Virus record (IMG/VR): IMGVR_UViG_3300035136_000021
Span: 1-56,882 of that record
Direction: 5' to 3' (one strand)
DNA from: a virus
Taxonomy: Duplodnaviria > Caudoviricetes
DNA length: 56,882 nt
The position numbers were made by a program, and so were the translations under genes. This document shows, piece by piece, positions 2,327-28,494 of the stretch. The notes beneath the pieces are model-generated. The model was given only the letters and a program-made list of their open reading frames with translations. It ran no database searches and was not told the DNA's origin. Position 1 is the first letter of the stretch. The number at the start of each line of letters is the position of its first letter.

Positions 2327-2701
2327 ATGTTAACAAAATATGAAATTGCAAAAATAATATTTACAACAGTTAATACTATAAGAAAGTTAAATGATGAAAA
2401 GGATATTGAATCTTTTGATGATATATCTGAAGAAAGAAAAAATCAATTATTAAAAAATATCGATGAAATTTTAGAACATCCTGAAATAACAGCAAAAGAT
2501 GAACATGATATTTGGATGAAATTAAAATTAAAAGATGGTTGGAAATATGGAGAAAAAACAGATAGAAATAATAAAATACATAATTGTTTAATACCATATG
2601 AAAATTTGAACGTATATCAACAATTAAAAGATGAGATAGCAATTTGTATTATTAGAACATTATCAAATAAAGGAGTTGATAAAATTGAAAAAATTAATTA
2701 A
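2327..2701 (+). CDS. Stand-alone RyR-domain protein
   Basis: EHDIWM..K..DGWKYG...D...K.H.CLIPYE.L...QQ.KD. Confidence 0.85.
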   Translation: MLTKYEIAKIIFTTVNTIRKLNDEKDIESFDDISEERKNQLLKNIDEILEHPEITAKDEHDIWMKLKLKDGWKYGEKTDRNNKIHNCLIPYENLNVYQQLKDEIAICIIRTLSNKGVDKIEKIN

Positions 2702-2786
2702 TTGTGGATTAATTTGCAAAGGTAGTAAATGTAAAAATTATAAAAATTGCACATTATTAAAAAAAAAAAGAAAGGATGTAATTAAT

Positions 2787-3095
2787 ATGAAAAAAATAAC
2801 TATGAATAATAAACAATACTGGGAATATAATAAAAATTATTTTGAATGTTCTAAATATGAAGAATCAAATGTTCTGAATATATCAAAAACTTTGATCAAT
2901 TGTATTAATTGTGAAAATTGTGAAAATTGTAAAGATTGTAAAGATTGTAAAGATTGTGAATATTGTGAAGATTGTGAAGATTGTGAAGATTGTGAAAATT
3001 GTTATTATTGTGAAAATTGTTATTATTGTGAAAATTGTGAATATTGTGAATATTGTTATGATTGTTATGATTGTTATGATTGTTATAATAATTAA
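2787..3095 (+). CDS. Cysteine-rich (Cxx)n repeat protein
   Basis: ATG 2787 after AAGGA; 21 Cys at every third residue encoded by 9-bp repeats. Confidence 0.7.
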   Translation: MKKITMNNKQYWEYNKNYFECSKYEESNVLNISKTLINCINCENCENCKDCKDCKDCEYCEDCEDCEDCENCYYCENCYYCENCEYCEYCYDCYDCYDCYNN

Positions 3096-3174
3096 AAAAT
3101 AATATAATAAAGTTTAATAAAAAAATTTTAAAATAAAGTAATTAACGATTAATAAGAAAGGAAATATTAAAAAT

Positions 3175-3741
3175 ATGGATAAATATATAGGAACAAAATT
3201 AATTGAAGCAAAACAAATGAATTTAGGGGATTATAATAAATACAAAGGTTGGACTATTCCTGATAATGAAAACCCTGAAACAGAAGGATATCTTGTAAAA
3301 TATTCTGACTCTTATGAATCTTGGAGTCCTAAAGATGTTTTCGAATATAGTTATAAAAAATTAAATATGAAAACGGATATCCCCGAAATGTTACAACATG
3401 ATTTAATTACATATGATAATACTTATATATCACATGATGAAGAATTATTTAATGCTCCAAATAATTATTTAATTCATGAAAAAAACAGTAAAAGTGGTTA
3501 TGATATATTAGCAGGAATACATTTCCAAGAAGGACCTGTCAAAGTACATGGCTTAAACGGTATATTTATGGAAGATTTACTAGCTATTGTTATCGACAGA
3601 TTATATAAATTTCAGAAAAGTGAATTTAAGTGCCGAGAAAATGCAATAGTTATTACAAAACTGGAAGAATCGTTAATGTGGTTAAGAAAGAGAACGTTAA
3701 ATCGAAAAACAAGAGGAGTTCAAGGAACTTATAAAGTATGA
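3175..3741 (+). CDS. tad1: Anti-defence sponge fusion: N-terminal YIGTK..GYLVKY..YESWSPK domain + C-terminal Tad1 (Thoeris anti-defence 1) domain
   Basis: C-term IHFQEGP....G.NG....DL.....DRL..FQ...F.CRENA...TKLEE.LMWL.KR...R..RGV.GT matches the Tad1 family. Confidence 0.8.
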   Translation: MDKYIGTKLIEAKQMNLGDYNKYKGWTIPDNENPETEGYLVKYSDSYESWSPKDVFEYSYKKLNMKTDIPEMLQHDLITYDNTYISHDEELFNAPNNYLIHEKNSKSGYDILAGIHFQEGPVKVHGLNGIFMEDLLAIVIDRLYKFQKSEFKCRENAIVITKLEESLMWLRKRTLNRKTRGVQGTYKV

Positions 3742-3810
3742 TTACAAAAAAATTTTAGCTTGTCTAATATTAAAAGTATAAAATTAAATATCTGCAAGTA
3801 GGTAATTGCT

Positions 3811-3850
3811 TTAAAAAACCTAAAGATTCTAGAATCTTTAGGTTTTTTAA
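3811..3850. terminator. Perfect 40-bp palindrome, probable bidirectional intrinsic terminator
   Basis: TTAAAAAACCTAAAGATTCT|AGAATCTTTAGGTTTTTTAA. Confidence 0.7.
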
Positions 3851-3862
3851 GTTATGTTAATA

Positions 3863-3891
3863 TTGACAATTCGTATTTATTTTAGTATGAT
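3863..3891 (+). promoter_or_regulatory. Sigma-A-type promoter
   Basis: TTGACA-N11-TTTTAG-TATGAT. Confidence 0.8.
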
Positions 3892-28036: not shown

Positions 28037-28297
28037 ATGAAAAATTATATAGGTTGTAAAATTATAAAAGCTAAGAAAGTTACATTGAAAGAATATTTTA
28101 TAAAAAAATATGGTAAAGAGTTTCAATACAATGGACAACAAGATTTGAATAGCATGGTATATCTTGTAATATATCCACCTATTGGAATTGATGATAATAA
28201 ACCTTATATTTCAATGAGTCCTGTGTCTGTTTTTGAAAAAGCTTATAGGGAAATTGATAATGATGAAATTAAACTAATGTTGGAGAATATTGATTAA
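28037..28297 (+). CDS. Stand-alone copy of the YIG.K..Y.V.Y..Y.S.SP..VFE.AY domain
   Basis: Aligns by eye with the N-terminus of 3175-3741. Confidence 0.7.
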   Translation: MKNYIGCKIIKAKKVTLKEYFIKKYGKEFQYNGQQDLNSMVYLVIYPPIGIDDNKPYISMSPVSVFEKAYREIDNDEIKLMLENID

Positions 28298-28494
28298 TGG
28301 ATGATACTTTTAATTTTTTAAAAAAAGATTTTCAAGAAGATTTAACAAAATTACTTGATATTTATAATATTGAAATAGATTTTAATTTACCATCATATCA
28401 ATTACAATCCTGTATAATTCAATATTTATTAAGTTTGAAATTAGGAATTCAAGGATATGAAATATTTCATAATATAAAAAAAGGTGATGAATAA
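28297..28494 (+). CDS. Hypothetical protein
   Basis: Coupled ORF, GGAG RBS. Confidence 0.5.
   Translation: MDDTFNFLKKDFQEDLTKLLDIYNIEIDFNLPSYQLQSCIIQYLLSLKLGIQGYEIFHNIKKGDE

Follow-up and report, generated by a model that had tools for sequence, protein, structure and literature searches.

The open reading frame at positions 3175–3741 (+ strand) of the window, meaning the whole 56,882-bp viral record that was analyzed, most likely encodes a two-module anti-defense protein in which a 62-residue YIGTK domain stands ahead of a Tad1 sponge domain. The YIGTK-Tad1 fusion and the partnership of the YIGTK domain with five sponge families appear to be new, whereas the Tad1 family, fusions between sponges and, in one preprint, the N-terminal domain type itself were known.

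The fusion gene and its Tad1 module

The record is complete, carries direct terminal repeats and is very AT-rich (19–32% GC). The fusion gene is a single open frame encoding 188 aa, from an ATG start to the stop codon at 3739–3741, and a Shine-Dalgarno-like AAAGGA can be read from the sequence at 3157–3162 (+), ~12 nt 5' of the ATG. Residues 1–62 (3175–3360, +) comprise the YIGTK domain, as supported by PHROG matches, 2145 homologues, homology to gp68 of Pectobacterium phage vB_PatP_CB1 (CB1 gp68) and an AlphaFold2 pLDDT of 92, and residues 63–188 (3361–3738, +) the predicted Tad1 sponge domain, placed by PDB sequence matches, Foldseek and hand-mapped residues. On the 3' side of the frame, a terminator scan gave a terminator-like hairpin with a 19-bp stem (3810–3851, +), the one such site near the fusion ORF compared with 0.2 expected from shuffles, and a sequence scan gave a strong promoter-like site (3863–3891) 3' of the hairpin. 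With these two elements lying beyond it, the fusion gene appears to be the last in a short transcription unit.

By sequence and predicted structure, the C-terminal residues 63–188 are a Tad1 domain, a new member of a known family. A PDB sequence search at E ≤ 10 matched seven distinct sequences, namely six Tad1 chains and PhiKZ gp184, with CmTad1 (8kbb) aligned to residues 80–187 (E 2.9e-28) and CbTad1 (7uav) to residues 97–185 (E 1.8e-14). The AlphaFold2 model of the fusion ORF, for which 48 fused homologues served as input, has a mean pLDDT of 92.5 and a pTM of 0.78, with predicted Tad1-module strands within residues 83–117 and helices at 132–147 and 154–180. This is the arrangement of the known Tad1 structures (CmTad1 8KBB–8KBD; CbTad1 7UAV/7UAW/8SMD), in which an antiparallel β-sheet at the N-terminus leads into two long helices at the C-terminus. 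Comparison of the model with CmTad1 in Foldseek resulted in a target-normalized TM-score of 0.87, an rmsd of ~2 Å and 39–41% identity, and with CbTad1 in a target-normalized TM-score of 0.86. The initial annotation had read the C-terminal part as Tad1 and proposed an HMM search and a structure match as checks; the reading is borne out by the CmTad1 match, the fold and the conserved gcADPR pocket described below, and the structure match agrees with it; the HMM result is divided. The profile phrog_2428 matches residues 71–187 at E 7.8e-37, whereas PF24729 (Acb2/Tad1 hairpin), which the precomputed annotation names as PF24729.3, scores 22.4 bits against a cut-off of 27. Eight other proteins of the same Tad1 clade score 17.8–24.0 bits, so that a value below the cut-off is typical of the clade, probably reflects the model itself and weighs neither for nor against Tad1 membership.

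The ligand-binding residues of Tad1 are largely retained. In the available text of Li et al. (10.1101/2023.11.15.567273), the gcADPR/CDN pocket of CbTad1 is made up of F82, N92, R109 and R113, the cyclic-trinucleotide site of CmTad1 of R88 and T95, and the hexamer interface of Q98, E99, M102, W103 and K106. The residues named there were transferred by hand to the PDB search alignments of the fusion with CmTad1 and CbTad1, with numbering offsets of +1 (CbTad1) and −10 (8kbb chain) taken from the fit of all named residues. In this alignment, all four pocket residues are kept as F146, N156, R173 and R177, both trinucleotide-site residues are present as R154 and T161, and the interface positions correspond to E164, E165, M168, W169 and K172, four of the five being identical. 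Across the 48 fused homologues, N156 and R177 never vary and conservation of F146 and R173 reaches at least 90%; R154 and T161 are absent from the positions conserved to that degree. Judged from homology and the conserved residues, it is very probable that the Tad1 module forms a hexamer that sequesters gcADPR and cyclic trinucleotides. The protein differs from characterized Tad1, a single-domain protein of ~120–130 aa, in its additional 62-aa N-terminal domain.

A tblastn search with the fusion protein matched 343 of 50,697 phage records, none of them with a query coverage of at least 80%. The top matches come from large Bacillus phages in which Tad1 is a gene of its own, and one of these genes carries the RefSeq label "Tad1"; several Bacillus phage Tad1 homologues carry the database label "structural protein", which is annotation only. 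The helical region of the Tad1 module is also matched by residues 157–228 of PhiKZ gp184 (PDB 8y6v chain I; E 1.5e-8), described in the available source as an inner-capsid vertex protein of this jumbo phage, and by phrog_22140 in the same manner. On this sequence match gp184 contains a Tad1-like hairpin within a virion protein, and hairpins of the gp184 type probably account for many of the 79 Pseudomonas phage matches in the tblastn search.

The YIGTK domain and its relatives

The N-terminal domain belongs to a genuine family that has no Pfam or NCBIfam model. Neither resource gave a match to residues 1–69, which align with the N-terminal parts of phrog_9467 (1.5e-20), phrog_872 (1.1e-17) and phrog_32732 (4.5e-14), profiles of 155–183 positions. 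An exhaustive phmmer search over 1.84 billion representative proteins found 2145 homologues at E ≤ 1e-3, of which 411 remain at E ≤ 1e-10. In a set of 149 representatives, composed of the window protein and 148 of the best 150 phmmer matches, 17 of the ~62 positions are at least 90% conserved, and several of these sit in a long loop that is modeled at high confidence. The predicted order of elements is strand, strand, helix, long conserved loop, strand, strand and helix. When the domain is modeled in isolation (pLDDT 92.1), residues 1–10 are without a strand partner, and in the full-length model residues 2–5 form a strand. A predicted complex of two YIGTK copies scored 0.35, short of the 0.42 mark but above the controls (0.00–0.02), and weighs neither way on dimerization.

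The model has no convincing structural neighbor in the collections searched. The PDB contained no sequence relative by phmmer and profile searches (best E 0.22), Foldseek with the isolated model gave a best E of 1.7 with a weak row for apo-SPO1 Tad2 (probability 0.23), and VIA-align against 48,161 chains gave a best Z of 3.5. Its best, though weak, neighbors are small β-barrels of the Tudor, chromo and CarD N-terminal type (Z 2.4–3.5 over 37–61 residues), values that lie far below the noise guide of the tool, where Z < 8 may reflect a common arrangement, and that come with no sequence signal, so that the likeness is a resemblance only. Three assignments of the domain to known sponge families were tried and rejected. 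Acb4, first suspected partly through a crAssphage annotation, fails since the fusion ORF has no PF13876 match at E ≤ 10, BLASTP against Ab09 gp59 gives E 2.9, the profile-profile probability is 0.2% (hhalign), and in the homologue P0121 PF13876 lies at residues 75–120, C-terminal to the YIGTK domain. Tad2 (PF11195; hhalign probability 0.1%) and Sequestin (PF21825; 1.0%) likewise sit after the YIGTK domain in fused proteins. Overall, hhalign of the YIGTK core against the Tad1, Tad2, Acb4 and Sequestin profiles gave 0.1–1.0%, compared with 100% for a split-half positive control, and at the level of sequence profiles the domain is thus unrelated to these four families.

A relationship was found to RyR Tad, which is CB1 gp68 (bioRxiv 10.64898/2026.06.04.730250). 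The YIGTK domain aligns with gp68 residues 4–63 at 39% identity over 62 aa (E 1e-8), and positions 6–66 of phrog_18865 match fusion residues 3–60; by this similarity the domain is homologous to the N-domain of RyR Tad. The initial annotation had called the N-terminal domain uncharacterized, which stands insofar as no Pfam or NCBIfam model covers it and fails insofar as this homologue was studied in the 2026 preprint. According to the available text of that preprint, the C-terminal RyR-repeat domain of gp68 is a gcADPR sponge that alone suffices against type I Thoeris, whereas gp68_N (residues 1–86) alone has no apparent anti-type-I-Thoeris activity. The crystal structure described there shows the N-domain as a dimer with a swapped β1 strand and a five-stranded sheet, and in the crystal the domain is described only as a dimerization element. 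The present protein and RyR Tad therefore have the same type of N-domain and the same plan, a YIGTK domain followed by a sponge module, and differ in that the sponge module of gp68 is an RyR repeat and that of the fusion is Tad1, the RyR-type module of the present phage being a separate gene.

This gene, a stand-alone RyR-domain ORF of 124 aa at 2327–2701 (+), encodes a candidate gcADPR sponge. It matches PF02026 at 46.8 bits (cut-off 27.4), positions 99–178 of phrog_18865 and the C-domain of CB1 gp68 (28% identity, E 2e-14). The preprint reports, in its available part, that mutating six gp68 residues weakened gcADPR binding (10.64898/2026.06.04.730250); five of the six (H, W, H, K and D) are kept in the RyR ORF and K147 is replaced by T, according to a hand alignment. 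The ORF lies two ORFs upstream of the fusion and is likely, on these similarities, a second Thoeris sponge, and with it so near the YIGTK-Tad1 fusion the region 2327–3741 looks like a small anti-signaling cluster. Between the two genes lies a Cys-rich ORF (2676–3095, +) that contains a long run of C-x-x-C-type triplet repeats, CENCENCKDCKDC..., and matches phrog_15341 (E 8.7e-11); an overlapping alternative frame is present at 2911–3102 within this repeat region. The ORF at 1864–2304 was considered as Bes1/RuvC-like, a reading that found no support, BLASTP against Ab09 gp60 giving E 11 and neither Pfam nor PHROG a match.

The initial annotation had also noted a stand-alone copy of the domain at 28037, and this copy is confirmed as an ORF of 86 aa at 28037–28297 (+) by PHROG, pairwise and family-profile matches. 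It adjoins the 3' side of a putative portal gene. The match to the family profile has an E of 2.3e-23, and the pairwise alignment with the fusion N-domain shows 34% identity over 74 columns (E 5e-7). This paralogue belongs to a divergent subtype: W26 and W50 are missing from it, and a KYG-type segment takes the place of the GW-IP-ENP loop. W26 and its conserved loop are also absent from 17 of the 48 fused homologues, most of which share the KYG-type segment; the loop is thus not a universal binding site. Stand-alone forms are common, with 33 of the 149 representatives shorter than 100 aa and with ESM Atlas clusters of 75, 78 and 95 aa that contain 58, 114 and 62 members, respectively. The start of a 65-aa ORF (28297–28494, +) overlaps the stop codon of the paralogue. 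It was considered as a hidden Sequestin and rejected, local Sequestin profiles scoring ~0–2 bits and neither Pfam nor PHROG giving a match.

Sponge partners of the YIGTK domain

The YIGTK domain precedes Tad2, Sequestin, Acb4, RyR and Tad1 modules and thereby five sponge families. In nearly all of the 149 carriers it is positioned at or near the N-terminus, and where sponge modules are recognized, one or two of them usually lie behind it. Pfam identifies Tad2-like domains in 35 of these representatives, Sequestin (PF21825) in 22, Acb4 (PF13876) in 21, the Tad1 hairpin in two and OmpA in one. A jackhmmer census of the same set found a known sponge domain in 82, made up of Tad2 (36), Acb4 (18), Sequestin (18), Tad1 (6) and the double partners Acb4 plus Sequestin (3) and Sequestin plus Tad1 (1). 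The last is P0185, a 301-aa chain of three modules in the order YIGTK-Sequestin-Tad1, which Pfam confirms. Named examples are the YIGTK-Tad2 protein of Klebsiella phage phi1_146050 and the YIGTK-Sequestin proteins of Acinetobacter phage 4316 and Bacteroides phage BF1-TP2. In phi1_146050 (L002:897–1968), an Acb4 (PF13876) gene and the YIGTK-Tad2 gene are both labeled "anti-CRISPR protein" in GenBank, labels that are probably inherited from the old anti-CRISPR speculation about DUF2829.

The modules are also found in other combinations. In one locus (L061:3983–4832) a gap of 2 nt separates a YIGTK-Acb4 ORF from the stand-alone Tad1 ORF behind it, and in two others (L022:36–695 and L042:3163–3834) RyR is joined directly to Tad1 in proteins of 219 and 223 aa, PF02026 being N-terminal and Tad1 C-terminal. 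A further Tad1 protein of 223 aa (L050) has ~100 N-terminal residues with no Pfam match. The YIGTK-Tad1 combination itself recurs: among the 120 best-listed protein clusters (90% identity), 48 span 95% or more of the query with identities of 44–100%, seven of 80 IMG/VR loci carry the fusion, and an ESM Atlas structure search, in which clusters of the same architectures came up, returned a YIGTK plus Tad1 hairpin cluster of 193 aa with 121 members. Members are found in Christensenellaceae and Oscillospiraceae MAGs and are all labeled "hypothetical protein".

The YIGTK domain of the fusion shares 70% identity with its counterpart in P0135, which the jackhmmer census classes as YIGTK-Tad2, and this identity across Tad1 and Tad2 partners points to a recent exchange of modules. 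On a tree of the YIGTK domain the partner labels are interleaved, with 27 partner changes compared with a mean of 36.5 for shuffled labels; only seven of the 146 inner branches are well supported, and the tree is too poorly resolved for fusion events to be counted. There are 34 proteins of at least 100 aa among the 149 in which no partner was recognized (P0149, P0203, P0177, P0227 and P0253 among them), with C-terminal parts of up to 174 aa, and a Pfam search of these parts returned nothing save an OmpA domain in P0155. By fusion logic, these proteins are candidates for further anti-defense modules; according to the available text of Tal et al. (bioRxiv 10.1101/2025.07.12.664507), Sequestin was found by the same logic.

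Fusions between sponges have been published, and those named in the available sources are Acb4-Tad2 (Pasteurella phage Pm86), Acb4-Sequestin (Pseudomonas phages YH6 and Ab09, gp59 in the latter) and Tad2-Sequestin. Like the present protein, they join independently folding anti-signaling modules in a short polypeptide; in contrast to it, Tad1 is not among the partners that these sources name. Ab09 gp59 has PF13876 at residues 4–79 and PF21825 at residues 86–143 (Pfam), and its N-terminal module is a true Acb4 with no likeness to the YIGTK domain. In the article text searched, there is no description of a YIGTK-Tad1 fusion and no report of YIGTK as a common partner of five sponge families, the domain appearing only in the RyR Tad preprint. 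Other Thoeris antagonists, Tad3–Tad8, are binders of ThsB or ThsA.

Possible roles of the YIGTK module

The gene product would be a two-module phage counter-defense protein. By homology with characterized Tad1, its C-terminal module would form a hexamer of three dimers. Pockets where the two subunits of each dimer meet would take up Thoeris gcADPR, and possibly some cyclic dinucleotides, two further pockets on the 3-fold axis would bind CBASS cyclic trinucleotides, and host effectors would thereby be deprived of the signal that activates them. The YIGTK module would be a portable β-rich domain placed ahead of one or two sponge modules and, judging from RyR Tad, probably pairs through a β1 strand swap over the 2-fold axis of a sponge dimer. 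If it has a target of its own, this would be either a host defense protein or a signal distinct from gcADPR, and the fusion would allow one small protein to block more defenses.

That the YIGTK module is an autonomous functional unit with a target of its own is the reading we favor, tentatively, and we put it close to an even chance. It is favored because stand-alone genes are common, because 17 of the ~62 positions are at least 90% conserved across diverse phages, because two YIGTK subtypes are present in one genome, and because all other modules of the fusion network are sponges. Counting against it, the single published test of this domain type, in the available text, was negative (gp68_N against type I Thoeris), no solved structure resembles the domain convincingly, the loop around W26 is missing from 17 of the 48 fused homologues, and a domain that is almost always N-terminal could equally have a structural or leader function. 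The suggestion in the initial annotation that the domain is an independent anti-defense or signal-binding module is thus strengthened by the five sponge partners, the stand-alone forms and the conservation, and weakened by the inactivity of gp68_N. In a more specific form, which we hold as possible though somewhat short of an even chance, YIGTK would be a sixth family of anti-defense binders, either sequestering a signal different from gcADPR or directly inhibiting a defense protein, and, lacking a Pfam model, it would have escaped fusion screens that rely on Pfam. YIGTK would then be the most connected node linking Tad1, Tad2, Acb4, Sequestin and RyR Tad, and the present phage would have two YIGTK subtypes, one fused to Tad1 and one alone, beside a gene resembling RyR Tad.

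Alternatively, YIGTK could have no target and serve as a general-purpose accessory, a strand-swapped domain that dimerizes or clamps 2-fold sponge oligomers. In stabilizing these oligomers or cross-linking them into larger assemblies it would add stability or avidity, and the protein would functionally be just a Tad1 sponge. The N-domain of RyR Tad, which dimerizes by a β1 swap and is not needed to inhibit type I Thoeris in the available text of the preprint (10.64898/2026.06.04.730250), would behave in this way, and the five partner families, as far as the available sources describe them, are all dimer-based homo-oligomers (the Tad1 hexamer, the Tad2 and Acb4 tetramers, and the Sequestin and RyR Tad dimers). 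The placement at or near the N-terminus in nearly all 149 carriers is consistent with such a role, as are the first 10 residues, which are unpaired in the isolated model and include a strand (residues 2–5) in the full-length model, as may be expected of a segment that requires a partner. The frequent stand-alone genes, one of them in this complete 57-kb genome, are nevertheless hard to square with a pure helper, the 17 near-invariant positions, loop residues included, exceed the usual needs of a dimer interface, and Tad1, Tad2, Acb4 and Sequestin are described in the available sources as oligomerizing and functioning without a YIGTK domain. We therefore regard the accessory role as plausible but rather doubtful.

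It is improbable, though worth stating, that YIGTK solves a problem common to all sponges, either evading Panoptes-type sensors that use decoy nucleotides or directing the sponge into the virion, in which case it would arrive together with the phage DNA. Such a role would fit a domain that is joined to every sponge family whatever its ligand, and a preprint, as far as its available text goes, reports sponges as triggers of Panoptes. For delivery in the virion, the location of the paralogue (28037–28297) directly 3' of the putative portal gene could be cited, as could the YIGTK-Sequestin gene that comes after the capsid gene in Acinetobacter phage 4316, the Bacillus phage Tad1 homologues labeled as structural and the Tad1-like C-terminal region of the PhiKZ inner-capsid protein gp184. 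This support is circumstantial throughout, those labels being annotation only, and N4-like phages place such genes, in the available description, in an early/middle anti-signaling hotspot outside the structural modules. Finally, an annotation or assembly artifact in which two neighboring genes are read as one, a split layout that does exist at L061, can be dismissed, since the fusion reads as one uninterrupted frame and the record is complete and bears terminal repeats, the same frame recurs in many independent contigs (the clusters down to 44% identity, the seven viral loci and the 193-aa ESM Atlas cluster), and the full-length model is confident throughout.

The Tad1 part of the fusion is thus ordinary, and the interest lies in the YIGTK domain, which is abundant (2145 representatives at E ≤ 1e-3), strongly conserved and found on five unrelated sponge folds. 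If the YIGTK module, as we favor, has its own target, it would add a widespread counter-defense activity and would account for the chaining of these modules in phages; should it only aid oligomerization, it would represent a design principle general to sponge proteins.
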